DNA from: an uncultured delta proteobacterium
GTDB taxonomy: Bacteria; Desulfobacterota; Binatia; Bin18
Direction: 5' to 3'
Length of the DNA: 64,000 bases
NCBI GenBank assembly: GCA_963733195.1
Contig: CAVTCR010000057.1
Span: forward strand, 2,589 to 66,588
Positions 2,269 through 47,515 of this stretch are shown piece by piece. Under the pieces are notes generated by a model. That model worked only from the letters and a program-made list of their open reading frames with translations, had not been told where the DNA came from and made no database searches. Numbering within the stretch: the first letter of the stretch is position 1; every line of letters begins with the position of its first letter. Position numbers and translations under genes: made by a program.

Positions 2269-3722
2269 TGGTCACAACTTAACGAAGGAGGATGAGAGCG
2301 TGACAGCGGAAGGAGATGCCGAAGGGAAGGTGGTACGCTATCTTCTGCCTACCCCAAGCCAGGAGGTAGGAGATGGCCAAACGCCGCCCGCGGCAGCATC
2401 ACAATCCCGATTTTCGGCACCGCGTCCCCGGACCGCTGCCCGCCGTGGCGGAGATTGAGGCGGAGCTCTTCGCGTTGCTCACCCCGGCATTGCTGGCACC
2501 CCGCCAATTGGAACGGTCTGACCCGCGCAATCCCCAGCGGCGCATTCGGCTGCGGGCGCGGATTTTGACGTTGCCGGTGATGGTGGCGCTGGTCGTGAGT
2601 TTGGTCTGGCGGCGGTTGGGCTCGATTGCGGAGGTCCACCGCGTGTTAGTCCAAGACGGGTTGCTATGGGTGTCGCCCCTGCAGGTCAGTGAACAAGCAA
2701 TCGCCAAGCGACTCGATACGCTGCCCGCCAGTGCACTGGCGACCCTCTTCACAGAGGTAAGTGCACGGTTGCAAGCCCAGCCCCCACCGCAGTTACCCGG
2801 GCTGGAAGGCTGGACGGAGATGCGCAAGCAGTTTCCGCGCGTTGCGATGGTGGATGGCTCGACGCTGGAAGCAATTCGGAAAAAGACGCAGACGCTGCAA
2901 GCTCAGCCCGGTCTCGTGCTCGCGGGCCGGATGATGGTGATGGTCGAAGCCTTTACCCATCGCCCCCTGTGGCAACTCTATACCGAGGAGGCAGCGGCCA
3001 ATGATAAACGCTTTGCCCCGGAGATTCTGACGGCGCTTCCAGAAGGGGGATTGCTGATTTTTGACCTGGGCTTCTTCAGCTTCTTGTGGTTTGATGACTT
3101 CACGGAGCAACACAAGTATTTTGTGACCCGCCTACGGCAAAACACGGCGTACCGCACCACGCACGTGCTCAGTCACGGCCCGTACTACCGGGACGAACTC
3201 ATTGAGGTGGGCCTCTACCGCTCCAATCCCTGTCGGCATCCGTTACGCCTAGTCTCCGTGTTGTGGCACGGGCAGTGGTATCGCTACCTCACCAACGTCC
3301 TCGACCCCGCTCAGCTCTCCGCGCGGCAGGTCTGTGAGCTGTATCGCCGCCGCTGGCGCATTGAAGATGCCTTCTTGGTGACTAAACGCGTGCTTGATCT
3401 CGCCTACCTCTGGAAAGCCTCGGCCAATGGCATGCAGCTCCAACTCTATGCCACGCTTCTCTTCTACCTTGTCCTCCTCCATGTCTGCCAGCAGGTCGCG
3501 CAGAGTCTCAACGAACCCTTGGAGCAGATCTCGGTCGAGATGGTTTTTCGCGCCTTCTATCACTATAGTCGCGCCCTCACGCGAGGCGAGACCCTAGAGT
3601 TGGTGCCGTACCTGGTCCACCATGCGAAGCTCTTAGGTCTCGTCAAACGTCGCCGCCAGCGCCATCGCGAGATCCAGCAAACCGAGCAATAGTGTGGGGC
3701 TGTCCTTAAGTTGTGACCAGTG
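2268..3722 (+). mobile_element. IS4-family insertion sequence with 17-bp terminal inverted repeats
   Basis: CACTGGTCACAACTTAA at 2270-2286 and its reverse complement TTAAGTTGTGACCAGTG at 3706-3722 flank the transposase ORF. Confidence 0.75.
2373..3692 (+). CDS. IS4-family DDE transposase
   Basis: 439 aa. The C-terminal signature Y-x2-R-x3-E-x6-K (YRRRWRIEDAFLVTKR) is characteristic of the IS4 family. Confidence 0.85.
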   Translation: MAKRRPRQHHNPDFRHRVPGPLPAVAEIEAELFALLTPALLAPRQLERSDPRNPQRRIRLRARILTLPVMVALVVSLVWRRLGSIAEVHRVLVQDGLLWVSPLQVSEQAIAKRLDTLPASALATLFTEVSARLQAQPPPQLPGLEGWTEMRKQFPRVAMVDGSTLEAIRKKTQTLQAQPGLVLAGRMMVMVEAFTHRPLWQLYTEEAAANDKRFAPEILTALPEGGLLIFDLGFFSFLWFDDFTEQHKYFVTRLRQNTAYRTTHVLSHGPYYRDELIEVGLYRSNPCRHPLRLVSVLWHGQWYRYLTNVLDPAQLSARQVCELYRRRWRIEDAFLVTKRVLDLAYLWKASANGMQLQLYATLLFYLVLLHVCQQVAQSLNEPLEQISVEMVFRAFYHYSRALTRGETLELVPYLVHHAKLLGLVKRRRQRHREIQQTEQ

Positions 3723-4818
3723 TATTGCAATACGCCCCTACGAATTCATGGAACAACCGCGACTTGCCTAACCCTGGCTCCCCCATTACGCCGACGACTT
3801 GGCCGTGCCCGGCTTTGGCTTGTTCCAACGCTACCTTCAGCTGTTCCATCTCGCTCTGCCGTCCGACAAACCGTGTTAGCCCTCGTCGTGCTGCTACTTC
3901 AAACGCGTGCGTAAGGCTCCCACACCCAGCACTTCGTAGATGTGCAGCGGTTCCTCTACTCCCTTAATCTGCGTGGGGCCCAGCTCCTTGAACGCAAAGT
4001 AGCCATCGGTGAGACGATGCGTGTAGGTTGAGACGACGATCGTGCCGGGAGTGGCGAACTGTTCCATGCGCGCCGCTAGGTTGGTCGAGTGGCCCACCGG
4101 CACGTAGTCCGCATGCAAGTCGTCTTTACGAATCGAGCGTAGCACCACTTCGCCTGTGTTTACCCCTACCCGCATCAACAGCGGGCGGATAGCCCTTTCG
4201 CCGCGTAACGTATCCGCATAGCGCCGCATTTCTTCTTGCATGCGTAGCGCGGCATAGAGCGCGCGTTGGGGATGATCTTCATGGGCCAGCGGCGCGCCGA
4301 ACAGGGCAAAGATGCCATCCCCCAAGGCTTGCGCGACATAGCCCTCATACTGATGTATGGCGTCCATCATGAGCTGCAGCGCAGGATCAATAATCGCCCG
4401 CGCCTCTTCGGGATCGAGTCCTTCGATCAACGCCGTCGAGCCTTTGAGATCGGCAAAGAGGGCCGTAATCGTCTTGCGTTCACCCTCCGTCAGCGAGACC
4501 GCACGAATGCGCTCGGCCAGATGGGCAGGCGTGTAGTCGATGGGTCTAGGGTCTGGGTCTGGTGTCTCGCGTCTGGGGACGGGGAGGCTTTGACTCTGGA
4601 CTCTGGACCCTAGACTCTGGACTGCTTTGACCGACCCACACCAACACTTTACCATCCTCATCTACAGCGAGTCGCTTGGCCTCTATGATTTCGGCAGTGA
4701 GGTCCGCAAGATAATCATCCTCCAAATCAAAGCGCCGCTTCAACGCGCGATACGTCACCCGCCCGTCTCGTTGTAAGAGACCAATGATTTGTGCAAGCAG
4801 ATCATCGAACGTTGGCAT
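3723..4818 (-). pseudogene. 5' portion of the same regulator gene: N-terminal domain, low-complexity linker, class III nucleotidyl cyclase domain, start of AAA domain
   Basis: ORF 4546..4818 (MPTFDDLLAQIIGLLQRDGRVTYRALKRRF...) shifts frame inside a GGGTCT/GGACTCT tandem repeat (4541-4640) into ORF 3894..4661, which holds the cyclase domain (ITALFADLKGSTAL...GDGIFALFGAP). After a TAG at 3891 the reading continues in another frame as FVGRQSEMEQLKVALEQAKAGHGQVVGVMGEPGLGKSRLFHEF (AAA Walker A) up to the IS4 end. Confidence 0.6.
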
Positions 4819-5144: not shown

Positions 5145-5964
5145 ATGGCAGAAACTAACATCAGTTTTTCTGGTTCCATTCCGCAAATGTACGATCGCTA
5201 TCTCGGCCCGGTGCTGTTTGAGCCCTATGCTGCCGATCTTGCCCGCCGCGTAGCTATGTCCATGCTACTGGTCCAGTGTTGGAAATGGCTTGTGGCACTG
5301 GCATTGTCACTCAACAGTTACGTGCTCACCTTGCCCCTGAGATTGAGATCGTTGCCACCGATCTTGAGTCAGCCGATGCTCGACTATGCGCGGACAAAAT
5401 TGCCAACGCTGAAGAATGTGACTTGGCGACAAGCAGATATTGCGGCCTTGCCATTTGCGGATGCCGAATTTTCTGCCGTGGTGTGTCAATTCGGCTTGAT
5501 GTTTGTACCCGACAAGCAAGCTGCCTTTCGTGAAGTCCGTCGGGTGTTACGCAAAGGTGGGGTGTTCGCTTTTAACGTGTGGGACAGTATGGCTGCCAAT
5601 CCCTACACCCAGCTCATTCAGGAGACACTTGCCAAAATATTCCCGGTAGACCCGCCGCAATTTTTCACGGTGCCCTTTAGCCTTCATGATCGTGAAGACG
5701 TTGCGACAGTTACTGACTACGCATGACTTCAGTGACGTACAGCTTGAGACCGTAACGCTAGAGGCGCGCAGCGAGAGTGCCAAAGCCCTTGCTACCGGAT
5801 TCATTCAAGGCTCGCCGCTGAGTACCGCGATTCAAGAGCGCGGGGCGTCCTTCGAGTCCGTCATTGAGGCGGTGACGGAAGCCTTAGCGCAGCATGGTGG
5901 CGCAGCACCGTTTCGCTCAACTATGCAAGCAGTGGTTGTGACTGCACGAGCAGGCGCAGTGTAA
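5145..5964 (+). pseudogene. Class I SAM-dependent methyltransferase with at least three frame changes
   Basis: Three overlapping ORFs (5145..5726, 5276..5533, 5686..5964) together give YDRYLGP...LEMACGTGIVTQQL (motif I)...ALPFADAEFSAVVCQFGLMFVPDK...LRKGGVFAF. No single frame spans the gene. Confidence 0.55.
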
Positions 5965-6201
5965 AGTGATGACAGCCTAGAGAAACGCTGCGGCATGATG
6001 TGGAGCTGCACTTATGGGTTCCTTCTCCCTAAGGGAGAAGGTCAGGATGAGGGAAGAGGAAGGGTCATCTTTGTTGAATTCCCTCACCCTTGCCCTCTCC
6101 CAGAGGGAGAGGGAATTACGTCCTCCAACGCCAGAAGTTGAGCCGAACAGTGTTGATCCTTGCAATCGCAATCAGAACAGTGCTCGTAGGAGAAAGCCAT
6201 T

Positions 6202-8238
6202 ATGGAGACCAGCCAACAACGCACGATTCGCACGATGTGCCCCATGAACTGCCATCCTACACTGTGTGGCATGCTGGTGGATGTCGAGAATGGGCGACTC
6301 GTGGGCGTGCGGGGTGATAAAGAGAATCCTGATAGTCAGGGTTTCCTGTGCGTGCGTGGGCAGGCTTCGCGGGAAATTATCGACAATCCAAAACGGCTCT
6401 TATATCCGTTGATTCGCGACCGCCGTACGGATGATGCCTGGCGACAAGCCAGTTGGGATGAAGCACTCGATCTGATCACAACGCGTATGCAAGCGGTAGG
6501 GCGAGAAGCGGTCGGCGTCTGGTCTGGGCATGGCGTCTCCAGCACCAATTATGGAACCCGAATCTATGGCCACTTGCTGCGCCGCTTTGCCAATTTCTAT
6601 GGCTGTCAGTGGTGGAGCCCGACAATGATCTGCTGGGGACTCGGCGCGTTTGGGCTCGGTGTGACTGGTGTCCTGGAGACCAACACCAAAGAAGATATGG
6701 GGCAGCATGCGCAGTGTATTCTTCTCTGGGGTGCTAACCTGGCGAGCCAGCCAAACACCGCCCGCCATCTGGTAGCAGCAAAACGACGCGGAGCGTACAT
6801 AGTCACGATCGATGTACGGCAGACCGAAGCCGCGGCGCAGTCAGATGAAGTGCTGTTGCTACGACCGGGGACGGATGCAGCGCTGGCCCTAGCCATGATG
6901 TATGTCATTATCGAGGAAAAGCGGTATCACAAAGAGTTTGTTACACAGCATACGGTAGGTTTTGACGAACTAGCTGCTCATGTTCGGCAATATACTCCAG
7001 CCTGGGCGGCAGAAGTCACAGGTATTGCCGCCGAACGGATTGTCGCTCTTGCTCGTCGCTATGCGACAACGCAGCCAGCGATGATTGTGATAGGTGGCAG
7101 CTCGATGCATAAGGGCACCAACAGTTGGCAGGCAGGCCGCGCGATTTCCTGTTTGCCGGCGCTGACTGGCAACCTCGGGATTGCAGGTGGTGGCTTTGGT
7201 CCACGGCATGGCAGTTCGGCGCATGGCCAAGCGCTAGCCAATATCACTGCTGAAGAGCAACGCCCGCCTGGTAACTATATTCCCAATCAGATGGAACAAA
7301 TCACGGCGGCGTTGTGTGATGGTCGGGTGCGAGTCATGCTCCTGTTCGGCACCAATATGATGTCCTCGTTTGCCGACACCGAGCAACTGGCTGTCGGGCT
7401 TGGCCGGACAGATTTAGTGGTGAGCTACGACCTGTTTATGAATGATACGGCACGCCGCTTTGCTGATGTCATCCTGCCGAGCACCTCATGGTTGGAAGAA
7501 CTCGGTTGTAAGGCGACCAACACGCATCTGTATCTCATGGAGCAAGCGCTGCCACCGGCAGGCGAAACACGGACATTAAGCCAGGTTCTGCAAGGTTTAG
7601 CGCAACGTCTAGGTTTGCAGGGCTTCTTTCCGTGGGATTCCCAAGAAGGGCTCATCAATGCGATTTTAGACCATCCTTGTACGGGCCATGCCACAGTTGC
7701 GACGTTGCGACAGCATGGAGGAATGGTTCCACTCCAAATCTCGCATGTTGCCTATCCTCACCGACAGTTCCACACTCCTTCGGGTAAAGTTGAGTTCTTC
7801 TCCGCTCGTGCGCAGTCTTTGGGATTGCCACCGCTTCCGGTCTACGAAGAATCCTCGCCATCAGCATACCCACTCGCACTGAGCCAGGGACGAACACTCA
7901 CTCATTTCCATGGTTTCTACGACCACGGCCAGGCGCTGCCCACCTTAGCTCAGCTTGATCCTGAACCCTACCTGTGGATCTCTCCCAGTGATGCTGCTAC
8001 GCGTGGTGTACACGATGGAGTACCCATTCGCATCTACAATCAACGCGGTTCTCTCACTGCGCGTGCGCGCGTCACCGATCAGATTCCTGCTGGAACTGTG
8101 TGGATGCGTGATGGATGGGTTGGCTTGAACAATGTGACTGAAGGACATGCTGTCTTGCCTGATACTGCCGTGGACATATTCAGCTTCTCTGCTGGACAAG
8201 CAACCTTTGAGGCGAAGGTCGAGGTTGCTTCGTTGTAA
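6202..8238 (+). CDS. Molybdopterin oxidoreductase (MopB/DMSO reductase superfamily), catalytic subunit
   Basis: 678 aa. N-terminal Cys cluster CPMNCHPTLCGM...FLCVRG (4Fe-4S ligands), molybdopterin-binding core and C-terminal MGD-binding barrel (GTVWMRDGW). No partner subunit gene is adjacent. Confidence 0.85.
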   Translation: METSQQRTIRTMCPMNCHPTLCGMLVDVENGRLVGVRGDKENPDSQGFLCVRGQASREIIDNPKRLLYPLIRDRRTDDAWRQASWDEALDLITTRMQAVGREAVGVWSGHGVSSTNYGTRIYGHLLRRFANFYGCQWWSPTMICWGLGAFGLGVTGVLETNTKEDMGQHAQCILLWGANLASQPNTARHLVAAKRRGAYIVTIDVRQTEAAAQSDEVLLLRPGTDAALALAMMYVIIEEKRYHKEFVTQHTVGFDELAAHVRQYTPAWAAEVTGIAAERIVALARRYATTQPAMIVIGGSSMHKGTNSWQAGRAISCLPALTGNLGIAGGGFGPRHGSSAHGQALANITAEEQRPPGNYIPNQMEQITAALCDGRVRVMLLFGTNMMSSFADTEQLAVGLGRTDLVVSYDLFMNDTARRFADVILPSTSWLEELGCKATNTHLYLMEQALPPAGETRTLSQVLQGLAQRLGLQGFFPWDSQEGLINAILDHPCTGHATVATLRQHGGMVPLQISHVAYPHRQFHTPSGKVEFFSARAQSLGLPPLPVYEESSPSAYPLALSQGRTLTHFHGFYDHGQALPTLAQLDPEPYLWISPSDAATRGVHDGVPIRIYNQRGSLTARARVTDQIPAGTVWMRDGWVGLNNVTEGHAVLPDTAVDIFSFSAGQATFEAKVEVASL

Positions 8239-8461: not shown

Positions 8462-8545
8462 AAGAATGAAGTTAAATTAAAAATGATGAAGAATGAATAC
8501 GGAATGATGAATGAAGAACGAGAGTTGAGTGCTGAGTAAAAGAAA
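8462..8545. repeat. Purine-rich GA repeat (AATGAAGAATGAA / GAATGATGAATG / ACTGAGT units) that follows cyclase/TPR family 3' ends
   Basis: Same composition and unit motifs as 11771-11990, 13895-13960, 22638-22765, 24108-24215, 30274-30325 and, in reverse orientation, 63846-63880. Confidence 0.5.
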
Positions 8546-11770: not shown

Positions 11771-11990
11771 ATGGAGAGTGGAGAATTGAAAATTAAGAAT
11801 GGGGAAACAAGCTGAAGGCTGAAGGCTGGAGGGGGAAATGAAGAGAGATGAAGGGAAAACGAAGAATTAAAAGTGATAAAGAATGAATGCGGAATGATGA
11901 ATACATTAGTAGTCAGTAGGCTCAGAATGCTGAATTATGAATGCAGAATGATGAGTGAAAGAAAAACTCGTGATCTTCCATTCATCGTTC
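11771..11990. repeat. GA-rich repeat block with an internal inverted copy (hairpin-capable)
   Basis: GAATGAATGCGGAATGATGAATAC ... TTCCATTCATCGTTCATCATT are inverted partners. GGCTGAAGGCTGGAGG units are also present. Confidence 0.5.
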
Positions 11991-14042: not shown

Positions 14043-14268
14043 GTCATTGCGAGTTGTCCATAGCGCTGACGCTAAGCCTTCAAGTAAAAACGGGACACAT
14101 GCTCGTCCCCAGGCTCTGCCTGGGGACGGAATGAGACGGAGTCTCCTGACTACTGCCGTTCCAGGCAGAGCCTGGGACGGAGGACTGAAGATTTGTTTCT
14201 GAGCAGCGCAGCGAAGCAATCTTTGCCGAAAAGAGATTGCTTCGTCGCCTGCGGCTCCTCGCAATGAC
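14043..14268. mobile_element. MITE-like composite element: 11-bp terminal inverted repeats enclosing a REP hairpin pair and a 12-bp-stem hairpin
   Basis: GTCATTGCGAG (14043-14053) and CTCGCAATGAC (14258-14268) are inverted repeats. Inside are REP hairpins at 14106-14126 and 14159-14178, plus GCGAAGCAATCT...AGATTGCTTCGC. Confidence 0.45.
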
Positions 14269-16730: not shown

Positions 16731-16796
16731 GCTGTAGGCTACAGGCTATAGGGTTCTGAAGGCTGACAGCATATCACCTAACTTTGACCTTGTGGC

Positions 16797-16863
16797 TCAG
16801 GCTCTGCCTGGGCACGCACTGCCTGGTAGGTTCCGTTACTCTTGTGCCCAGGCAGAGCCTGGT
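16797..16863. repeat. REP hairpin pair (CTCAGGCTCTGCCTGGGCAC / GTGCCCAGGCAGAGCCTGG)
   Basis: Two imperfect palindromes in inverted orientation, about 30 nt apart. Same family as the RAYT-flanking REPs. Confidence 0.6.
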
Positions 16864-16931
16864 TATGCGGAAGACTCCATGCTAGAGCTATGAGCATGAG
16901 CGTAGCGACGAGCCATACGCCATCAAGCGAG

Positions 16932-22637: not shown

Positions 22638-22765
22638 ATGAAGAATGAAAAATGGAGAGTGAAGACTGGGAAGAGAGGCTTAAGGCTGAAGGCTAAAGGG
22701 AGGAGGAAATGAAGAATGAAGAGTAAGAAGAGAGGAATGAGTACTGAGTGACGAGAGACAGGATA
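22638..22765. repeat. GA-rich repeat copy
   Basis: ATGAAGAATGAAAAATGGAGAGTGAAGACTGGGAAGAGAGGCTTAAGGCTGAAGGCTAAAGGG...GGAATGAGTACTGAGTGA. Confidence 0.5.
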
Positions 22766-24107: not shown

Positions 24108-24215
24108 GATGAATGAAAAATGAAGAGGGAAGAATAGGAAGGTAGGCTGAAGGCTGAAGGGGGAGGAAATGAAGAATGAAAAATGAAAGTGCAGAGGGAT
24201 GAGTAACCATTAGTT
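24108..24215. repeat. GA-rich repeat copy
   Basis: GATGAATGAAAAATGAAGAGGGAAGAATAGGAAGGTAGGCTGAAGGCTGAAGGGGGAGGAAATGAAGAATGAAAAATGAAAG. Confidence 0.5.
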
Positions 24216-24856: not shown

Positions 24857-25774
24857 TCACTCAAGCCCCTCACGGAGCGGCACGTACGGCACACGCTCGG
24901 ACCACGGACGGTAGGAGTCGGCGTTCTCGCTCGTGATCAGGCGTCCGAGGGGAGCCAGGGCAAGTGCCCCTTCAAGCTGCTCGCCGTTGACCAGTACGCG
25001 TGAGACCAGTTCACCGACGGCAGCACCAATCTCGGTAATGTCGATATCCCATGTCCCGTGAGTGCGACCTGCCCGTACTGCTGCGACCGCTTGCGGACTG
25101 CCATTGCGTGACACCAACTTCATCTCTCCAGCGCGTCCCGCCTCGTCGATCGCCTCCAGTGTCCCCAACATGGTTTCATCGTTAAAGGGAATCAAGCCGT
25201 CCAGATGGGCGAAGTCCGCCAACACTCGACGCGCGGCCTCTCGTCCGCCTTCTTTGACATCCTCCCGGTTGCGGTGCCGATCGACAAAAGGATCGTTGAC
25301 GAGTTTGAGACCACTGCGTTGGACCCCATGGACAATACCAAGTACCAGTTCGATATCGTCGATCACCTCCGGACCGCCGATCACCGCCACGTCTGCCTGC
25401 GGGGGCAGGAGCGAGGCCAGGTACTCGGCCATGTACACGCCATGATTAAAATTCGGATACACCAACGACGCGTTGACCGGATATTGTGGTCGTTCCAAGG
25501 TGAACACAGGAATCCCGTGCTGTCGTGCGGCGGTAACTGCTTGCGCGGGTTGCGTTGGGTCCAGGACGTAGACGACAATTCCGTCTACCCCTGCATCAAT
25601 GCCGCGCTGGATTGCCGCGGTTTGCTTTTCGACCCAATCGGGCGAGCGTACGTCGGTCGTCAGCGTCCGTAGTTCAATCCCGGCTTGGCGTAGACGGTGA
25701 TCGAGGCCATGCGCCAGAGCATCAATTCCAGGGTGCGCACCGTACGGAAGGACATTGACATATAAGACTCGCAT
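24857..25774 (-). CDS. Type I periplasmic-binding-protein-fold (RbsB-like) sugar-binding domain protein without signal peptide
   Basis: 305 aa, RbsB-like pattern (...IPFNDETMLGTLEAIDEAGRAGEMKLVSRNGSPQAVAAVRAG...). N-terminus MRVLYVNVLPYG is not a signal peptide. Confidence 0.55.
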   Translation of the reverse strand: MRVLYVNVLPYGAHPGIDALAHGLDHRLRQAGIELRTLTTDVRSPDWVEKQTAAIQRGIDAGVDGIVVYVLDPTQPAQAVTAARQHGIPVFTLERPQYPVNASLVYPNFNHGVYMAEYLASLLPPQADVAVIGGPEVIDDIELVLGIVHGVQRSGLKLVNDPFVDRHRNREDVKEGGREAARRVLADFAHLDGLIPFNDETMLGTLEAIDEAGRAGEMKLVSRNGSPQAVAAVRAGRTHGTWDIDITEIGAAVGELVSRVLVNGEQLEGALALAPLGRLITSENADSYRPWSERVPYVPLREGLE

Positions 25775-25795
25775 ACTTTTCTTCCTTTGTTGACG

Positions 25796-26746
25796 TCAGA
25801 GCCCGATGGTGAGCGGCAACCACTGCACCCGTTCTGACCACGGACGCCAGGTGTGCAGATTGTCCAGCGTAATCATCCGTCCTACTGGGCTCATTACCAG
25901 AAACTCTTCGTATTGTTCTCTCTTTGTGAGGTGTCGCACGATTACCTCTCCCAGCGTGGTCCCGATGCCGGAGGCATCCAGATCCCAGGTGCCAGCGATC
26001 TTGCCTTGCCGAACGGCTTCAACCGCGGCTGGTGAACCATTGCGACAAACAATTTTCATCTCCTTGGCTCGCCCAGCCTCTTCGACGCATGCGAGTGCGC
26101 CATGCATGGTTTCATCATTGTATGGAATCAGTCCATCAATACGTGGGAACTCCGCGAGCAGCCGCGACATCGGTTCCCGTGCGCCAACCGCAATATCGGT
26201 GAGATTGCAGTACTGTGGCTGGGTCGGGTCATTGAGTAACTTACAGTGACTCTGCTGTAGAGCAAACACCAACCCGGCCACTTCTTCGGCATCGTCTACC
26301 GAGTGTGGTCCGCCAATGACGGCCACACCGCTGTTTGGAGCCAGGAGCGAGACGAGATGTTCAGCCATGAAAACACCCTGATTGAAGTTCGGATAGATCA
26401 CCGAGGCATTAACCGGGTAGTGCGGACGAACGAAGGTGAAGACTGGAATGCCAGCCGCACGAGCCTTGGCTACGGGTTCACGGAAAGCGGACGGGGTAAT
26501 GACGTAGATGACGATGGCATCAACTCGGGCAGTGATTCCTGCTGCAATCGCGTCTTCATATTGACGACGATAATCTGGAGCAGTGAAATCGGCAAAGAGC
26601 ACACGGAGTTCGATCTCTGCCGCATGAAGAGAATGTTGGAGCCCGTAGGCAATAGCATCAATGGCCGGATTTCCACCCAGCGCGAGCGGATTGATATAGA
26701 GTACACGCATGGCCATAAGCTCCTTCCTTTTCTTACGTCGCCACAA
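25796..26746 (-). CDS. Paralog of the preceding PBP-fold protein (tandem duplicate)
   Basis: 316 aa, roughly half identical to 24857..25774 (MRVLYINPLALGG...IPYNDETMHGALACVEEAGRAKEMKIVCRNGSPAAVEAVRQG). True start is probably the MAMRVL/MRVL Met near 26713. Confidence 0.55.
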   Translation of the reverse strand: MWRRKKRKELMAMRVLYINPLALGGNPAIDAIAYGLQHSLHAAEIELRVLFADFTAPDYRRQYEDAIAAGITARVDAIVIYVITPSAFREPVAKARAAGIPVFTFVRPHYPVNASVIYPNFNQGVFMAEHLVSLLAPNSGVAVIGGPHSVDDAEEVAGLVFALQQSHCKLLNDPTQPQYCNLTDIAVGAREPMSRLLAEFPRIDGLIPYNDETMHGALACVEEAGRAKEMKIVCRNGSPAAVEAVRQGKIAGTWDLDASGIGTTLGEVIVRHLTKREQYEEFLVMSPVGRMITLDNLHTWRPWSERVQWLPLTIGL

Positions 26747-26805: not shown

Positions 26806-27339
26806 TCAAACGGACACGCCGAGATGGCGACGAGACAATCCATCAAAGCTTTCAGGGCAATATACTCCCCCGCCTGGCCGCGGCGGGCTGGTAATTAATC
26901 GTGCCGTCCGCCTTCGGTCGCGTATTTTGAAACAGATTGACTGGGTCGGGATATCGAGATACCCCAGTCCATACGGAGTGACTGCCTGTGTGAGATTATC
27001 GCGGCAGTTGCGATGTGTCGGATCGCCCGCCGTGGCGGCATAGAGGGCGCTGCTGCACGGAGCAAACTGCAAATCATGCACGCCCTTGGCCAAATCTTCG
27101 ACAATCTCAAACATGGGGTTTTGCAGATTGGAGTAGAACTTACTCCCGACCGTCAAGTGGATGGAGCCGCTCCCTGCCAGGGAGTTGAAGTTCACGGTCT
27201 CACCCGTGGAGAGTTTCTCCCGCGGTTGATGCAGGTTGAAACAAACGAAGTCACCGATCTGGTGTCCCTCGACGTCAATGACCTTGATCGTCTCACCCCG
27301 TCGGACTACAAACGCAGCTCCTTCAGTAGCGGGAATCAC
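26806..27339 (-). CDS. DUF1989-like (urea-carboxylase-associated family) protein, C-terminus possibly disrupted
   Basis: FVVRRGETIKVIDVEGHQIGDFVCFN...EKLSTGET pattern. The C-terminal 40 aa are low-complexity and look out of frame. Confidence 0.5.
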   Translation of the reverse strand: MIPATEGAAFVVRRGETIKVIDVEGHQIGDFVCFNLHQPREKLSTGETVNFNSLAGSGSIHLTVGSKFYSNLQNPMFEIVEDLAKGVHDLQFAPCSSALYAATAGDPTHRNCRDNLTQAVTPYGLGYLDIPTQSICFKIRDRRRTARLITSPPRPGGGVYCPESFDGLSRRHLGVSV

Positions 27340-27410
27340 TAGATGTTGTTCTCTCGGGCATGGTACTGTCCTCCTCTGGCGTTTCTATGGGCGATGCTTC
27401 TGGATCCCTC

Positions 27411-27486
27411 GTGCTCAGGCTCTGCCTGGGCACGAGAAGACGTCATTCGACACTTTTTCCCTCGGTCCTAGGCTCTGCCTAGGACC
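27411..27486. repeat. REP hairpin pair downstream of the RAYT gene
   Basis: GTGCTCAGGCTCTGCCTGGGCACG (27411-27434) and GGTCCTAGGCTCTGCCTAGGACC (27464-27486). Each is an imperfect palindrome. Confidence 0.65.
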
Positions 27487-27522
27487 GCACTGTCTGACGG
27501 TCTCTTTTCACCTTTTGCCTCA

Positions 27523-28056
27523 TTACCAATCTGTCACTACGTCGATCAGTCCTTTTTCTCCCGCGTACGTCCGCGCGCTGGAGTAACGCCAATGTACGGG
27601 GTCATCCACGTAGCCACGTCGTACCGGGTTTGCGTGCATATACTCCAGCTTCTGTCTCATCATTTCCTCGTTCTGGATCTGTTGAGGATGACTTCCCTCT
27701 TGCCAGAGTTGAAATGTCTGGTCGGTCTTATGGCGCAGTTTGAAAAACCGGAGTTCTTCACGCAATGTAGAGAACCCTTCTTGTGCGAGTCTATCAATGA
27801 TCCGGCGCGCGGTGTAGGACTTGAATCGGCCTACGTACTCGGAGAGACCGTCCGCCGCGGCAATCCAATGCAGGTGGTTCTCGAGAATCACGTACCCGAA
27901 GATGCGCACCCCTCGTTCCCGCTGAAGGAACCGCCACGACTCTAAGACGATCTCGACACATTGCGGATGGGCGAAGACCGGAAGCCACGCGACTACGGTG
28001 CAGGTGAGAAAATACGGGGACTCTTCTGTGAAGATGCGGTAGCGGGTACGTGACAT
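27523..28056 (-). CDS. REP-associated tyrosine transposase (RAYT; IS200/IS605-like Y1 HUH transposase)
   Basis: 177 aa. HUH motif (ILENHLHWIAA) and catalytic Tyr region (HWRYSSARTY). Flanked on both sides by REP hairpin pairs. Confidence 0.8.
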   Translation of the reverse strand: MSRTRYRIFTEESPYFLTCTVVAWLPVFAHPQCVEIVLESWRFLQRERGVRIFGYVILENHLHWIAAADGLSEYVGRFKSYTARRIIDRLAQEGFSTLREELRFFKLRHKTDQTFQLWQEGSHPQQIQNEEMMRQKLEYMHANPVRRGYVDDPVHWRYSSARTYAGEKGLIDVVTDW

Positions 28057-28079
28057 CGGGTGTATTTCCTAGCGAGGCA

Positions 28080-28173
28080 GAGCTTAGCAAACATTGCGCT
28101 CCCAGGCGGAGCCTGGGAACGAGATGAACGAGAGGAATCACTGGTGGAGGCAAGTGACTACTACCTTTGTTCC
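28080..28173. repeat. REP hairpin pair upstream of the RAYT gene
   Basis: GCTCCCAGGCGGAGCCTGGGAACG (28080-28103) and GTTCCCAGGCTCAGCCTGAGAAC (28151-28173). Confidence 0.65.
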
Positions 28174-28209
28174 CAGGCTCAGCCTGAGAACAAGATGATA
28201 TAGTGACGG

Positions 28210-28239
28210 TTGACAGCTCGGCAACACCAGCAGAATAAT
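28210..28239 (+). promoter_or_regulatory. sigma70-like promoter of cyclase paralog 3 (TTGACA-N18-AATAAT)
   Basis: TTGACA 28210-28215, spacer ending CAGCAG, AATAAT 28234-28239. ATG at 28277. Confidence 0.45.
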
Positions 28240-28276
28240 CCAGATCTATGCAGGACAACCCCACCAGCAAGAGGGT

Positions 28277-30273
28277 ATGAAGGTGCCTACGCATACATCG
28301 GTTGGCATGGAACGCAAGCTCGCGGCGATCTTCAGCACCGATGTCGCGGGTTACAGTCGCCTCATGGGCGACGATGAAGAAGCCACCATCCGCACCCTTA
28401 CTGCCTATCGTACACTGATTTCCTCCCTGATCCAGCAGTACCGTGGCCGGGTGGTCGATGCGCCCGGCGATAACCTGCTGGCCGAGTTTGCCAGTGTGGT
28501 CGATGCCGTGCGCTGTGCGGTCGAGATCCAACACGCACTTAAAGAGAAGAACGCCGAGCTACCTGAGCATCGCCAGATGCAGTTTCGCATCGGCATCAAC
28601 TTGGGCGATGTGATTGTCGAGGGCGAACGACTTTATGGTGATGGCGTCAACATCGCCGCGCGGCTGGAAAGTCTAGCGACCCCGGGCGGCATTTGTATCT
28701 CAGGGACGGTGTATGACCAGGTCGAGAACAAACTGGTGCTGAACTACGAATATCAGGGCGAGCAGACGGTCAAGAACATCGCCAAGCCGGTGCGGGTGTT
28801 TCGCATCCTGCTAGAGTCCGATGCTGCTTCCTCAGACAATCAAGCCGTGCTTCGACACGCTCAGCACGAACGGACACCGACTCCGGTCACCCTGAGTCCT
28901 TCGACAAGCTTCGAGGACAGGCTTTATCGAAGGGTGCTCAACTGAAACGCAAGGGGGGACTGTTGCTGGCTGGGCTGCTGCTCATCGTGGCAACAATCGT
29001 AGCAGTCCGGTATTTTTCTCGTCCACCTCTCAGTCCTCAGCCCTCAGTACTCGTCACTGAGGAGGCGAAGCCTCCGTCGCTTCCCTTGCCCGACAAACCC
29101 TCCCTCGTCGTGCTGCCCTTCGTCAACATGAGCGGAGACCCCAAGCAGGACTATTTCAGCGATGGCATCACTGAAGACCTCACCACGGCCCTCTCGCAAA
29201 TTTCCAGTCTGTTCGTCATCGCCCGCAACTCCGCCTTCACCTACAAGGGCAAAGCCGTCAAGGTGCAGGACGTCGGGCAGAGAACTGGGCGTGCAGTACG
29301 TGTTGGAAGGCAGCGTGCGCAAAGCCAACGACCAGGTGCGGATCACCGCGCAGTTGATCGATGCGGCGACAGAGTCTCACCTCTGGGCGCAGCGGTATGA
29401 CCGTCCACTGAAGGACATCTTTGCCCTGCAAGACGAGATCGTGCAGAAGATCGTGACGACGTTGAAGCTGCAGCTCACCTTGCGGGAGCAAGGGTACCTG
29501 GTGCGCAAGACCACGGACAACCTGGAGGCCTATGATGCTACTTGCGTGGGCTGGAGGCATGGAACCGCTACACGAAAGAGACCAATGCCCAGGCCCGGCA
29601 GCTGTTTGAGAAAGCGATTGCGCTGGACCCGCAGTATGCCGAGGCGTACGCGAGGCTGAGTCGAACACTCTCCACGGAGTGGGTCTATGGCAATGGAGTC
29701 AGGATCCTCAGACGCTGGAGCGCGCGTTGGTCCTGGCGCAACAGGCCGTTGCCTTGGATGACTCCTTGCCTGGAGCCCATGAGGTATTGGCTTTTGCCTA
29801 TCCCTATAAAAAACAACATGAGCAAGCCATTGCGGCAGCCAAGCGGGCCATTGCTCTTGCTCCCAATGACGCGGAGGGCTATGCGAATTTGGGGCACATT
29901 TTGATCTTTGCCGGGCAGCCAGAGGAAGCCATTGAGCTTGATCGAGAAGGCGATGCGCCTCAACCCCCGCTATCCGTTCCACTACTTATCCTTGCTCGGC
30001 ATGGCCTATGTCTTGGCGAGGCGGTATGAGGAAGCGCTCGCAGTCCTGCAGAGCGCCACCTCTCCGCAACCCCAATTTTCTGCCTCCTCATCTTCATTTG
30101 CTTGTCAGCTATAGTGAGCTAGGCCGAGATGCGGAGGCCCGAGCTGAGCTGGCAGAACTCCGGCGGCTCAATCCCAATATTCTCTCTGGAGTGGTATAGG
30201 CGGGTGATGCTTCAAAGATCCAGCGGACTTGGAGCGGTATCTTGCCGCCCTGCGCAAGGCGGGGCTGAAATAA
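28277..30273 (+). pseudogene. Cyclase family paralog 3: intact class III cyclase domain ORF (222 aa) followed by frameshifted TM - TolB-N-like - TPR part
   Basis: ORF 28277..28945 has a complete cyclase domain (MERKLAAIFSTDVAGYSRLMGDDEEATIRTL...GDGVNIAARLESLATPGGICISGTVYDQV). ORFs 28963..29400, 29162..29659, 29679..30029 and 30008..30199 continue the TM/TolB-N-like/TPR part in shifting frames. Conserved ...LAALRKAGLK stop at 30271. Confidence 0.7.
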
Positions 30274-30325
30274 TGGAAAATGGAGAATTAAAAATTAAAA
30301 ATGAAGAATGAGCACTGAGGAAAAA
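30274..30325. repeat. GA-rich repeat copy
   Basis: TGGAAAATGGAGAATTAAAAATTAAAAATGAAGAATGAGCACTGAGG. Confidence 0.45.
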
Positions 30326-32437: not shown

Positions 32438-32554
32438 CGTTTGGCAAAGTCGAAGAAGGCAGGAAGTGATCGGTTCCAGACGAACGTAAACGAACACATC
32501 TAGGCTGGGGCAGCTGCTGTTGAGTGTCCGGGAAAAGCCAGTAAGGAGAATATC

Positions 32555-33810: not shown

Positions 33811-33964
33811 CAGTCCCAGGCTCTGCCTGGGACTGTACTGTGTGACTGGCTCCGCCTGCTATATTTTGTCCTTAGCCTCAGATTCTGCCGAGGTCGCACT
33901 GTCTGATAGTCCAATTGTCTTTCTCATCACTACTACCAAGCGTTCCCAGGCAGAGCCTGGGAAC
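33811..33964. repeat. REP hairpin pair (outer copies ~105 nt apart)
   Basis: CAGTCCCAGGCTCTGCCTGGGACTG (33811-33835) and GTTCCCAGGCAGAGCCTGGGAAC (33942-33964). Confidence 0.6.
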
Positions 33965-34037
33965 AGATAAACCTTCCCTTGTCGGTTTGCTACAGACTTC
34001 ATCAAGGTTACGAGCTGAAAACATGAAGTATGTTCCT

Positions 34038-34710
34038 TTAGCGCGCAGAAATCTGCACCAATGTCTCTCGCAGCTTTGCTGCAATGTCCTTGGCAAGAAC
34101 CAGATCGCTGATCATCGCGACTGCATCTGCACCGGCATTGAGGGTAGCGGGAGCGCGTTCAGTGGTGATCCCACCAATCGCCACGATTGGTAAGCGTACT
34201 ACAGCACGGATTGCACGCAACTGATCAAGGCCACGAGCTAGTGTAGCCGGTGGCCTTGGTGGTTGTGCCGTACATTGGACCGAACCCGATATAGTCCGCA
34301 CCGTCACGTTCGGCAGTTTGTGCTTGTTGTGGATCATGGGTAGACACGCCGATAATCCTATGTGGGCCGAGTACTTTGCGTGCGGCTGTAAGGGGGAGAT
34401 CTTCCTGGCCGACATGAACTCCGTCGGCATCGACGGCAAGTGCAATGTCTGCCCGATCATTCACGATGAACAAGCATCCAGAGCAACGGCATATCTTGCG
34501 TACTTCTTGTGCGATCACGAGAAAATCGCGGGACGGAACGTCTTTCGCCCGCAGTTGCAGTATCTTCGCCCCACCAGCACAGAGCTTTTCGGCGATCGCG
34601 ACGAACGATAACTCCGATCGGCCAAGTGTGTCGGCGATGGTGTAGAGAGGGCTTGGGAACGAAAAAAGGGGTCGGGGGTCGGGGGTCGGAGGTCGGTTTT
34701 GTTCATTCAT
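34038..34710 (-). pseudogene. thiE: Thiamine-phosphate synthase ThiE, frameshifted
   Basis: ORF 34225..34710 (...IVNDRADIALAVDADGVHVGQEDL...IGFGPMYGTTTKA) and ORF 34038..34460 (...LDQLRAIRAVVRLPIVAIGGIT...GADAVAMISDL) overlap by 235 nt in different frames. The N-terminal 15 codons are encoded by the G-rich repeat. Confidence 0.75.
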
Positions 34711-34765
34711 AGGTATCCGTTTTCTTTTCTTACTGATCCCTGACCCCTAACCCCCGACCCCTGTC
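34668..34765. repeat. G-rich GGGGTCGGGG repeat forming a long inverted-repeat hairpin
   Basis: GGGGTCGGGGGTCGGGGGTCGGAGGTCGG (34668-34700) and its near reverse complement CCTGACCCCTAACCCCCGACCCC (34740-34765). Related copies at 4541-4640, 50866-50900 and 58030-58062. Confidence 0.55.
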
Positions 34766-36189
34766 TTCTTCACTTCAATCTTCAGATCGGTGATTTTCTT
34801 GCGTAACGTATTGCGATTGATACCGAGTACATCAGCGGCCTTCAATTGGTTGCCGCTGGTGTATTCCAATGTTAACTCAATGAGCGGCTTCTCAACTTGC
34901 TCAATGATCGACGTGTACAAATCCGCCGGTGCGACACCAGAAGATTGTTGGAAATAGGGTTTAAGTTTCCGACGGATGACTTCTTCGAGCGACAGTTCAG
35001 CCAGGTCTTCCGGAAGAGACGCCTCTTCCTGTGGAAGGGACAGGTCTGAGAGCGTAAGCATACGTCCTGGGGCAAGGACGGCTGCTCGCAGTAAGACATT
35101 CTCTAACTCGCGAATGTTTCCTGGCCATGGGTACTGGAGGAGCAAGGCCTGCGCGTCAGGAGAAACGCCAGTGACCGATGTTCCCATTGATCGATTGATT
35201 TTATCGAGAAAGTAGGTCGTCAATTCGGGAATATCTTCGTATCGCTGCCGCAACGAAGGCAGCGTGATGGGAACAACCCGGAGCCGGAAATAGAGGTCTT
35301 CGCGGAAGAGTTGTTCGCGGACGGCGGTCGCAAGATCTTTATTCGTAGCCGCAATGATACGAACATCGCATTTGATCGTGTCGCGTCCACCAAGACGGGT
35401 GAACTCGCGCTCTTGAATGACACGCAACAGTTTTGCTTGCAACACCAGTGGCATGTCACCGATCTCGTCTAGGAACAGCGTTCCGCCCGCCGCTTGCTCA
35501 AATTTTCCAATCCGTCGCTCGATTGCACCAGTGAAGGCTCCACGTTCATGTCCGAAAAACTCGCTTTCAAGCAGGTCCATCGGGATCGCAGAGCAATTGA
35601 TCCCAACAAACGGTGCACGCCACCGAGTAGAATAGCGGTGAATCACTTTGGCAATGAGCTCTTTGCCAGTGCCACTTTCGCCCTGAATGAGGACGGTAGC
35701 ATCGTTCTTCACCACGCGACCGATGACCTTATAAATTTCTTGCATCGCCGCGCTGTGGCCGATGATCTGTTCGGTTTTCCCTGGTGTGGTCAGCACAGGT
35801 AGAACGACTTCTTCCGTGAGATGCTGTGCCTCACAGGCGCGGGCAGCAAGTGCCTTCACTTCTTCCAAGTCGAAGGGTTTGGGAAGATAGTCAAAGGCTC
35901 CCCGCTTCATTGCTTCGACGGCATTCGTGAGCGTGGTTTGCCCGGTCATAATAATGATGGATGTTGGCAGGTGCATTTCCTGGACGCGGAGGAGAAGATC
36001 AAGTCCGCTCAACTCCGGCATACGAATATCGACAAAGGCAAGAGCAAATGGTTGCGCTTGTAAGCGTTCCCAGGCGAATTTCCCTGAAGGGACAGTTTCG
36101 ACCGTATAGCCTTCCTCACTCAGAGTGTCAGCGAGGACGCGGCGGATGAGGTCTTCATCGTCGGCAATGAGAATAGCAGGGCGTGTCAT
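34747..36189 (-). CDS. sigma54-dependent response regulator (NtrC/AtoC family): REC - AAA+ sigma54 activation - Fis-type HTH
   Basis: 480 aa. D-box REC (ILIADDE...DIRMP), GESGTGKE Walker A, GAFTGA motif (ERGAFTGA), C-terminal HTH ([13 protein letters not shown]). Confidence 0.9.
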
Positions 36190-38510: not shown

Positions 38511-40169
<1,659 letters not shown>

Positions 40170-46723: not shown

Positions 46724-47515
46724 ATGTACGCGACAGTTGATGATTTGAGAATTCATTATACCCTTGAGGGGCAAGGGACTGACCTTATCTTAATTCACGG
46801 ACTCGGCGGTAGCTTGCACGATTGGGATGCTATTGCTCCCGTCCTTGCCCGCTATCATCGTGTCCTACGGTGGGACGTCCGCGGATTCGGTGAATCCGAT
46901 AAGCCAGCGGGTCCGTACTCTCCACAGCTCTTTGCTCGCGACCTGGCCGGATTGTGCCGTGCTGTGGGTGTCTCTTGTGCGCACGTCGCCGGCATTTCAA
47001 TGGGTGGGGTGATCGCACAGCGTTTGACGATTGACTACCCCGAGTTAGTGCGTTCCCTCGTGCTGATGAGCACTTCTAGTGAGGTGAGTGAGCAGGCACA
47101 AAAAGCCTGGTTGAAGATGGCCGATAGTATCGAGCAGCGTGGGTTTTCTGCCAATCCTGATGTTGCAGCGCGCGTTTTTACCCCAGGCTTTGCCAAGGCC
47201 AATCCCGACCAGATTACAGCGATGACTGAACGGACCGCGAAAAATGCTCCACATGCGTATGCGGCAGCGGCACGAGCAATCGGGACATTTAATTGGACTG
47301 CTGAACTCGATCGTATCCGCGTGCCAACCTTAATTCTTCAAGGCCTTGAGGACGTGCTGACTCCGCCCGGTGGCTCGGTCAAGCTGAGTCGCGGCATTGT
47401 CCACTCACGGCTGTTGATGTTGCCAGAATGTGGCCATGGTATGACGATGGAAAAGACGGAAGTGGTGACTCATGCACTGCTCGCGTTCGTGGCTGGCGTA
47501 GAATTCAGCCAGTAA
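46724..47515 (+). CDS. Alpha/beta-fold hydrolase (enol-lactonase-like)
   Basis: 263 aa. HGLGGS oxyanion region, nucleophile elbow GISMGG, C-terminal His (CGHGM). Confidence 0.85.
   Translation: MYATVDDLRIHYTLEGQGTDLILIHGLGGSLHDWDAIAPVLARYHRVLRWDVRGFGESDKPAGPYSPQLFARDLAGLCRAVGVSCAHVAGISMGGVIAQRLTIDYPELVRSLVLMSTSSEVSEQAQKAWLKMADSIEQRGFSANPDVAARVFTPGFAKANPDQITAMTERTAKNAPHAYAAAARAIGTFNWTAELDRIRVPTLILQGLEDVLTPPGGSVKLSRGIVHSRLLMLPECGHGMTMEKTEVVTHALLAFVAGVEFSQ

Follow-up and report, generated by a model that had tools for sequence, protein, structure and literature searches.

What kind of element is formed by a short gene with palindromes on both sides of it, when palindromes of the same build recur in the intergenic DNA nearby? 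The question is raised by a gene at 27523-28056 in a stretch of 64,000 nucleotides of contig CAVTCR010000057.1, from an uncultured delta proteobacterium of the class Binatia; we refer to this whole stretch as the window. Our analysis indicates that the gene encodes a REP-associated tyrosine transposase (RAYT), where REP stands for repetitive extragenic palindrome, and that the locus is a REPtron. In it a RAYT gene (TnpA-REP, an HUH/Y1 endonuclease of single-stranded DNA), single-copy in the window, has its cognate REP hairpins on both sides, and further REP singlets and inverted REP doublets (REPINs) of the same family are dispersed through neighbouring intergenic DNA. We put the probability of this reading at roughly 0.85. 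It belongs to the REPtron/REPIN type known from Nunvar 2010, Bertels & Rainey 2011 and Ton-Hoang 2012, of which PMC6006769 and PMC3337134 give summaries. Moreover, we show that the REP stems are kept by compensatory change, that the positions of hairpins relative to the gene are conserved over dozens of loci, and that the REPs co-diverge with the protein.

Results

The product of 27523-28056 is a RAYT by profile, motifs and fold. It matches the NCBIfam equivalog model NF047646 (REP_Tyr_transpos) over profile positions 3-146 of 146 with 108.4 bits (E 2.7e-31), well above the cut-off of 80 bits. Its score with Pfam Y1_Tnp, on the other hand, is 18.1 bits and lies below the gathering score of 23 bits, so that of the two profile searches suggested by an earlier, sequence-only reading of this DNA the RAYT one succeeds and the Y1_Tnp one stays under threshold; class 2 (RAYT) proteins generally do score under the Pfam threshold (Quentin et al. 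2018, PMC6006769). That reading had also pointed to an HUH motif, LENHLHWIAA, and to a catalytic tyrosine region of the Y1 type, and both are borne out. The motif occupies residues 58-67, with H61-L62-H63 at its heart, and 78 residues separate it from Y139-MHA-N143-P144, within LEYMHANP; W118-Q119 is present too. The form Y-x3-NP is the signature of class 2 (RAYT), as opposed to the Y-x3-Q of IS200 (PMC6006769). When the protein is aligned with E. coli TnpArep (PDB 4er8), which at about 20 bits of direct similarity is the sole solved structure retrieved by sequence, HLH pairs with HMH and Y139 with the catalytic Y115. H63, W118, Y139, N143 and P144 do not vary among 33 homologues, and H61 hardly varies. 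An AlphaFold2 model (pLDDT 68, pTM 0.68) matches only Y1 transposases: the top 30 Foldseek matches in the PDB are all IS200/IS605 or RAYT structures, with TM scores of about 0.5-0.68 and E values from 2e-5 to 2e-3, and they include ISDra2 (2e-5), IS608, IS200 and 4er8 (1.3e-4). By tblastn the gene is single-copy in the 64-kb window, which contains no tnpB. More than 4,300 relatives are found at E <1e-5, nearly all of them 177-182 aa long, and many carry the JGI name 'REP element-mobilizing transposase RayT'.

The palindrome pairs that had been seen to bracket the gene are real, and consist of four copies of 25-29 nt (Table 1). The typical REP is a 25-nt hairpin with an 11-bp stem and a 3-nt loop, with the family consensus CT-CGTTCCCAGGC-TCT-GCCTGGGAACG-CACTG. 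Over 186 copies the consensus reads CTCGTT-core-AACGCACTG, and its constant parts are the 5' CT, the foot CGTTCC/GGAACG, the apex GGC-TCY-GCC and the 3' CACTG. Canonical REPs are defined by a 5' GT[AG]G tetranucleotide (PMC6006769), and this tetranucleotide stands at the hairpin foot on neither strand of the 186-copy consensus, whose reverse strand begins CAGTG-CGTTCC. Since the GT[AG]G foot is lacking, the REP here is not of the classic E. coli type. The description of the locus as a 'classic RAYT/REP (BIME-like)' one, after the bacterial interspersed mosaic elements (BIMEs) of E. coli, is thus right about the RAYT/REP arrangement but overstates the likeness to E. coli, given the missing foot and the sub-threshold Y1_Tnp score. 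Folded as single-stranded DNA, every copy gives an 11-13-bp stem with a 3-nt loop, at z scores of -4.2 to -6.6 against shuffles. A scan for intrinsic terminators found 0 terminator-like sites in 27200-28400 and a T-run after none of the REPs, and a search with all Rfam families at gathering thresholds matched nothing anywhere in the window.

The two proximal REPs, 28097-28121 (-) and 27463-27487 (+), bracket the RAYT gene in opposite orientations, with the core of the downstream copy ending 40 nt past the stop codon. The hairpin that lies between the proximal upstream REP and the ATG corresponds to a smaller hairpin of the family, GAGGCTCTGCCTC, which comes after the main one. The orientation of the distal upstream copy is ambiguous from the window sequence alone; we assign it to the plus strand because the orthologous copy in a related contig (L002, below) is a perfect hairpin with the loop GGA on the gene's strand. 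The two-copy downstream arrangement is found again in the closest homologous locus, L123. A weak promoter match farther upstream would, if used, transcribe the RAYT gene through its own upstream REPs. As a side observation, one homologue (P0058) is annotated with an N-terminal extension (...VPRLRLGTHC...) that comes from translating through the upstream REP hairpin; databases probably contain many such spurious N-terminal extensions, and many short open reading frames (ORFs), over these REPs.

Table 1. Coordinates of the RAYT gene, its flanking REPs and the dispersed REP copies in the window.
Feature	Positions	Strand	Sequence	Remarks
RAYT / TnpA(REP) gene, 177 aa	27523-28056	-		ATG start; ORF, profile, motifs, fold
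Proximal upstream REP	28097-28121	-	CGTTCCCAGGCTCCGCCTGGGAGCG	Gene's orientation; core starts 61 nt before ATG
Degenerate half-copy / second hairpin	28068-28089	-	TGCTAAGCTCTGCCTCGCTAGG	Between proximal REP and ATG
Distal upstream REP	28168-28192	+	TGTTCCCAGGCTCAGCCTGAGAACA	One uncompensated stem change
Candidate promoter	28195-28224	-	TTGCCG-18-TATCAT	Weak sigma-70-like match, 9/12; consensus match only
Proximal downstream REP with conserved 3' tail	27463-27498 (hairpin 27463-27487)	+	CGGTCCTAGGCTCTGCCTAGGACCG; tail CACTGTCTGAC	Inverted relative to the gene
Distal downstream REP	27408-27436	+	CTCGTGCTCAGGCTCTGCCTGGGCACGAG	13-bp stem; direct orientation with proximal downstream copy
REPIN-like inverted REP pair	14104-14128; 14156-14180	+; -		Intergenic, nested in unrelated palindromic element 14043-14268
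REPIN-like inverted REP pair	16792-16816; 16843-16867	+; -		Between convergent genes; outer stem of second copy decayed
REP cluster	33811-33835; 33872-33906; 33941-33965	+; +; -	tail CACTGTCTGA	Between convergent genes; middle copy degenerate, with conserved tail

Is this layout peculiar to the window? Our sample for comparison consisted of 80 metagenomic loci encoding relatives of 54-89% identity, of which 64 have enough flank. In these homologous loci the core of the upstream hairpin, in the gene's orientation, lies 55-75 nt before the ATG (-61 in the window), and the downstream inverted hairpin lies 37-60 nt past the stop (+40 in the window). A CT-footed 11-bp hairpin in the expected orientation is present upstream in 44/64 loci and downstream in 50/64. 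Between the two REPs that flank the same gene there are 0.65 differences in 14 positions, as against 2.37 between loci (permutation p 2e-4), and REP divergence grows as RAYT identity drops (rho -0.50, p 0.0015). The stems vary through compensated pairs such as CCCAGGC/GCCTGGG, CCCACGC/GCGTGGG, CCCAAGC/GCTTGGG, CCCAAAC/GTTTGGG and CCGAGGC/GCCTCGG. With 44 distinct copies aligned, double changes are seen in 10/11 stem pairs and 96% of cells are paired, a level of covariation that 0/500 shuffles match and that no slid register comes near. The compensatory maintenance of the stems, together with the co-divergence of REP and RAYT, therefore argues for a continuing interaction between protein and hairpin. 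The neighbours of the gene in the window (DUF1989, cyclase-TPR and periplasmic binding protein genes) are shared by 0/80 of these loci, a count that says little on mobility as many of the contigs are short.

REPs of the same family are found well away from the gene. The 17-nt core CCCAGGCTCTGCCTGGG, with up to 3 mismatches, occurs at 11 sites in the 64 kb, against 0.2 expected from dinucleotide shuffles, and a count of 11 was reached by 0/100 shuffles. One of these sites, 47182-47198, lies inside a coding ORF with 3 mismatches and without the family flanks, and is probably there by chance. All five REP loci fall between major ORFs of the window, which agrees with the intergenic preference that the sequence-only reading had proposed to check. 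That reading spoke of 'identical REP pairs' at 14.1, 16.8 and 33.8 kb: these loci are real and do carry inverted pairs, but the copies are diverged and have only the family in common. What they share is the 17-nt core, while stems and spacers differ, often through compensated changes (CGTC...GACG, CGTG...CACG, CGGTCCT...AGGACCG and CAGT...ACTG among the stem variants in the window). The 14.1-kb pair (14098-14186) folds either as twin hairpins or as one long hairpin, z -6.6, and the 16.8-kb pair (16788-16872) as one long 18-bp hairpin or, alternatively, as twin hairpins, z -4.7. The doublets are like REPINs in that their REPs are inverted, stand a short spacer apart and can fold together into one long hairpin. 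A REPIN family is also expected to have many near-identical copies, and the three doublets in the 64 kb are mutually different. Their spacing is 51-52 nt, start to start, and the smaller second hairpin is mostly missing.

The 14.1-kb pair was said to sit inside a larger element flanked by inverted repeats, and indeed an 11-bp perfect inverted repeat, GTCATTGCGAG (14043-14053) and CTCGCAATGAC (14258-14268), encloses 14104-14180. This is a second palindromic element, unrelated to the REPs, with an inner hairpin CGAAGCAATCT-loop-AGATTGCTTCG at 14212-14244. Compact copies of it, of about 70 nt, occur in the cyanobacterial loci L004 (6936-7008) and L065 (1632-1706), and there is a partial copy in L056, from Planctomycetota. 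The REP doublet and some 145 nt appear to be an insertion that separates the left terminal arm from the remainder of the element.

How has the locus changed among close relatives? We compared the related assemblies ERZ25039531 and ERZ25039541 with the window contig. Two public contigs, L001 and L002, distinct from the window, encode the identical RAYT protein, and their flanking genes have 88-95% DNA identity to those of the window. Among the three genomes the RAYT coding sequence shows 2-4/534 nt pairwise differences and its 5' spacer 3-8/220 nt, whereas the adjacent DUF1989 gene shows 40-49/~637 nt and the periplasmic binding protein gene 101-181/~1,885 nt. At third codon positions L001 and L002 differ by 3/178 (1.7%) in RAYT and by 29/210 (13.8%) in DUF1989 (Fisher p 8e-6). 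Altogether, RAYT with its 5' spacer (27523-28276) is about 10x less diverged than the flanking genes. This low divergence may reflect either unusual constraint or a recent homogenisation that took in both the gene and its 5' spacer. For RAYT groups 4 and 5, Bertels et al. 2017 (PMC5581495) noted that evolution is very slow. An overlapping antisense gene was considered as a cause and rejected: the ORF at 27592-27945 is codon-aligned, but it is open in only 18/54 homologues.

The REPs next to the gene have been rearranged in one of these relatives. In L002 the distal downstream REP breaks off precisely within its loop (CCCAGGCA|), and next after the break stands a copy of the distal upstream REP that has its own flanks (ATATCATCTTG ... 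AACAAGG) but an inverted loop; the replacement, at 2850-2910, is orthologous to ~27370-27430 of the window. In L001 the loop of the proximal downstream REP is TGT, not AGA. The loop flips and a breakpoint in the loop suggest hairpin-mediated recombination or template switching, and the change in L002 is a sign of REP-linked rearrangement beside the RAYT gene. The 33.8-kb cluster is found in L001 as well, at the orthologous position, where it differs by point changes and has a 37-nt indel next to it; its insertion therefore predates the split.

Finally, we scanned one genome per species for exact matches to the 17-nt core and found at least 120 stretches. Among the matches listed, 104 of 120 have the family flanks (>=7/10 bases of CTCGTT/AACG). 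By phylum these comprise 42 from Cyanobacteria, 41 from Planctomycetota (with one Rhodopirellula locus counted) and 10 from metagenome-assembled genomes (MAGs) labelled Desulfobacterota or 'delta'; the rest come from a few MAGs with doubtful labels. A RAYT gene accompanies the REPs in 2/120 stretches and 118/120 are without one. Close REP pairs are inverted ('+-') in 46/64 cases and typically lie 81-107 nt apart, compared with the 51-52 nt of the window's doublets, and the main hairpin is usually followed, ~10 nt on, by the smaller hairpin nGAGGCTCTGCCTCn. On plasmids we found 5 weak matches to the RAYT family only, at 24.5-45.8% identity (Salinivibrio, Persicobacter, Bernardetia), and viral contigs gave no RAYT-family match.

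Other features of the window

A GroEL encoded at 38523-40169 shares 94% identity with proteins named 'Candidatus Binatia bacterium', and the host is therefore probably a Binatia-like bacterium from a metagenome. Three paralogous adenylate/guanylate cyclase-TPR genes lie at 9.3-11.8, 20.7-22.7 and 28.3-30.3 kb, with DNA blocks that are 63-89% identical, and the RAYT gene is directly upstream of the third. After each paralogue come purine-rich simple repeats (AATGAAGAATGA / GGCTGAAGG type), examples of which are at 8475-8512, 11865-11956, 22657-22745, 24112-24186 and 30272-30323. At 2247-3741 there is a probable insertion sequence (IS), with a 439-aa DDE_Tnp_1 transposase ORF (2373-3692, Pfam 66 bits) bounded by 39-nt inverted repeats (2247-2285 / 3703-3741, 77% complementary). 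It lies between a Guanylate_cyc ORF (3894-4661, -) and an ORF at 1219-2268 (-), and may split another cyclase gene. A G-rich/C-rich inverted repeat, GGGGTCGGGGGTCGGGGGTCGGAGGTCGG ... ACCCCTAACCCCCGACCCC, occupies 34661-34770, in intergenic DNA downstream of the 33.8-kb REP cluster; its arms of ~37 nt are 78% complementary and 34 nt apart.

The comparison with the two related contigs brought out further differences. At 5503-6455 L001 has ~870 nt more than the window at ~32448-32531, encoding a 67-aa protein and a DUF6932 protein, which is a small accessory-gene indel between related genomes. The periplasmic-binding-protein gene is one 612-aa ORF in L002, two ORFs in the window (24857-26746) and three called genes in L001 (11348-13086), and DUF1989 is shorter in the window (177 aa) than in L001 and L002 (209 aa). 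The split ORFs and the short DUF1989 could be assembly frameshift errors or real pseudogenes.

Discussion

Our results place the locus within a known kind of bacterial repeat system, of which it is a little-described branch; standard pipelines would label the gene RAYT. With the E. coli REPtron (TnpA-REP/YafM and REP/BIME; 4er8; Bertels group 2, Quentin subclass 2.2) it has in common an HUH/Y1 protein of ~165-180 aa with Y-x3-NP, a gene (single-copy within the window here) with inverted flanking REPs, and hairpins dispersed intergenically, often as inverted pairs. However, the HUH motif is NHLH here and DHLH there, direct similarity between the proteins is slight, as noted above, and the REP here has a perfect 11-bp stem, without a bulge and without the 5' GTAG foot, the stem being preceded by a conserved CT and followed by CACTG; nor is there the alternation of Y and Z REP types that E. 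coli BIMEs have. By motif signatures alone the protein comes nearest to Quentin subclass 2.6 (Bertels group 5; PMC6006769), which shares NH[LIV]H, WQ and Y-x-H-x-NP, a length of ~179 aa and a long distance from HUH to Tyr (78 here, median 82), and whose REPs are likewise atypical in being without GT[AG]G. Members of that subclass were described as mostly from Bacteroidetes and as having 'weaker' structures, whereas the branch described here has strong 11-bp stems and occurs in Binatia-like, Planctomycetota, Cyanobacteria and Desulfobacterota sequences. For the REP sequence itself, nothing relevant appeared in searchable main texts or in the Di Nocera 2013 supplements. The only trace of it that we found in the searchable literature is a row of Table S1 of Quentin 2018, where Desulfatibacillum alkenivorans ACL04004.1, unclassified (subclass '0'), is given with the REP GTATGCATTCCCACGCAAAGCATGGGAACGAG (PMC6006769), which is the reverse complement of the CACG variant of the hairpin family here. 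The doublets resemble the REPINs of P. fluorescens SBW25 (Bertels & Rainey 2011, PMC3116915) in consisting of two inverted REPs with a short spacer, able to form one long hairpin, and in going with one RAYT gene, single-copy here within the window; SBW25, however, has large near-identical populations of them, as against three mutually different doublets in 64 kb here.

How might such a system work? By analogy with the RAYTs of E. coli, Stenotrophomonas and Marinomonas (PMC8266576, PMC3479197), the enzyme would bind the REP hairpin once this is extruded from single-stranded DNA, presumably reading the invariant stem foot (CGTTCC/GGAACG) and the apex (GGC-TCY-GCC). It would then cleave beside the hairpin, most plausibly at the CT just 5' of the stem or at the CT within the 3' CACTG, with Y139 forming a 5'-phosphotyrosine link and H61/H63 holding a metal ion. 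If the strand were then rejoined elsewhere, REP or REPIN units would be copied or moved while the gene stayed single-copy. In the studied RAYTs of groups 2 and 3, binding to a folded single-stranded REP is followed by a cut at CT (or CA) on the 5' or 3' side of the hairpin, and the strand is rejoined by way of a Tyr-5'-phosphate link (PMC8266576).

Several points weigh against the REPtron reading or limit its reach. The biochemical activity of this RAYT branch is drawn from its likeness to the studied RAYTs, and the cleavage site and the active strand are guesses, because the REP is without the GT[AG]G foot that guides cleavage in those proteins (PMC8266576, PMC6006769). The protein falls short of the Pfam Y1_Tnp threshold, its structure model is of moderate confidence and unreliable in the last 30 C-terminal residues, and the count of REP copies covers ~64 kb of this genome. 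The covariation rows from outside the window were preselected for >=9/11 paired positions; this preselection was clean, as candidates were anchored on unpaired features only and were bimodal, with either >=10 pairs or <=8. Lastly, no two copies in the window are identical beyond the core, and the 33.8-kb cluster is shared with a relative that is ~95% identical there, so that the window gives no direct sign of recent transposition. Since the copies have diverged and at least one cluster is orthologously conserved, REP dispersal in this genome is old or slow, not recent.

Could the hairpins and the gene be explained otherwise? One might take the whole for an autonomous insertion sequence of the IS200/IS605 family, with a TnpA gene and subterminal hairpins that move as a unit. 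The weak Y1_Tnp match, a fold that comes nearest to the ISDra2 and IS608 transposases, and hairpins on either side of the gene all look this way, and TnpA proteins such as those of IS608 and ISDra2 do share the HUH/Y1 fold and the recognition of DNA hairpins. Such elements, however, are multi-copy and often carry tnpB, whereas the window has one copy of the gene and no tnpB; their hairpins lie on one strand, as in IS608, whereas those flanking the gene here are inverted; and among the matches listed the hairpins stand without the gene in 118/120 stretches. The tyrosine motif is that of class 2, where IS200 has Y-x3-Q (PMC6006769), the protein clears the cut-off of the curated RAYT model, and searches for the family gave few plasmid matches and none in viral contigs. 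We consider this the least credible of the explanations and give it almost no weight. Only marginally better is the proposal that the hairpins are mainly regulatory or structural elements of the host (terminators, mRNA 3'-end stabilisers or protein binding sites) and that their proximity to a RAYT gene is incidental. The hairpins do lie between convergent or co-directional genes, and secondary roles of this kind are known for the REPs of E. coli (cited as background in PMC6006769), but the terminator scan came back empty, with no T-run after the copies, and fixed positions on both sides of the RAYT homologues together with co-divergence rule out incidental proximity. A secondary regulatory role may exist besides, but it would leave the origin of the hairpins unexplained, and as a full account the proposal is very improbable.

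A more serious competitor, though in our judgement still an unlikely one, is that the system is a relic: the REPs would now be immobile, the RAYT kept as a domesticated nuclease for some host function, and the hairpins old, decaying or co-opted. This would suit the heterogeneity of the dispersed copies, of which 16843-16867, 33872-33906 and, by the gene, 28168-28192 are decayed, as well as the orthologous conservation of the 33.8-kb cluster in L001. The near-invariance of the RAYT coding sequence (2-4/534 nt, against 40-49/~637 nt in DUF1989) fits strong constraint at the level of the host, and Bertels et al. 2017 (PMC5581495) have argued that RAYTs behave like housekeeping genes. Compensated stems and co-divergence of REP and RAYT, on the other hand, imply an ongoing interaction of protein and hairpin, and the replacement beside the gene in L002 is REP-linked. 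The relic proposal departs from the REPtron reading solely in the level of present activity, and we retain the latter.

Beyond the window, the absence of the GTAG foot, the near-identity of the hairpin across phyla and the low divergence of RAYT together allow a bolder, and tentative, picture to which we give somewhat less than even odds. In it, this RAYT branch and its 25-nt hairpin would be a single lineage spreading horizontally across phyla (Binatia-like, Planctomycetota, Cyanobacteria and Desulfobacterota), with recognition through the CT foot and the CACTG tail in place of a GTAG guide, and with RAYT and its REP-bearing 5' spacer homogenised or sweeping, within a species group, apart from the flanking genes. 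Carriage on plasmids or phages was considered as the vehicle of transfer and rejected, with only the 5 weak plasmid matches and 0 viral ones. If true, such horizontal spread would contrast with the prevailing view of REPIN-RAYT systems as strictly vertical, species-specific replicators.

At the level of the window, five intergenic hairpin clusters that were otherwise unexplained are now annotated and accounted for, as the sequence-only reading had anticipated, and the element can be searched for elsewhere with the pattern CT-CGTTCC-N5-TCY-N5-GGAACG-CA. More generally, the biology of RAYTs and REPs is based on Enterobacteria, Pseudomonas and Xanthomonads, where the foot of the REP is GTAG. The branch described here has a large number of relatives, its REP is without GTAG, and its hairpin is nearly the same, base for base, in different phyla. 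It is therefore a convenient system for two questions: how a RAYT chooses its cleavage site without GTAG as a guide, and whether the inheritance of REPs and RAYTs is always vertical.

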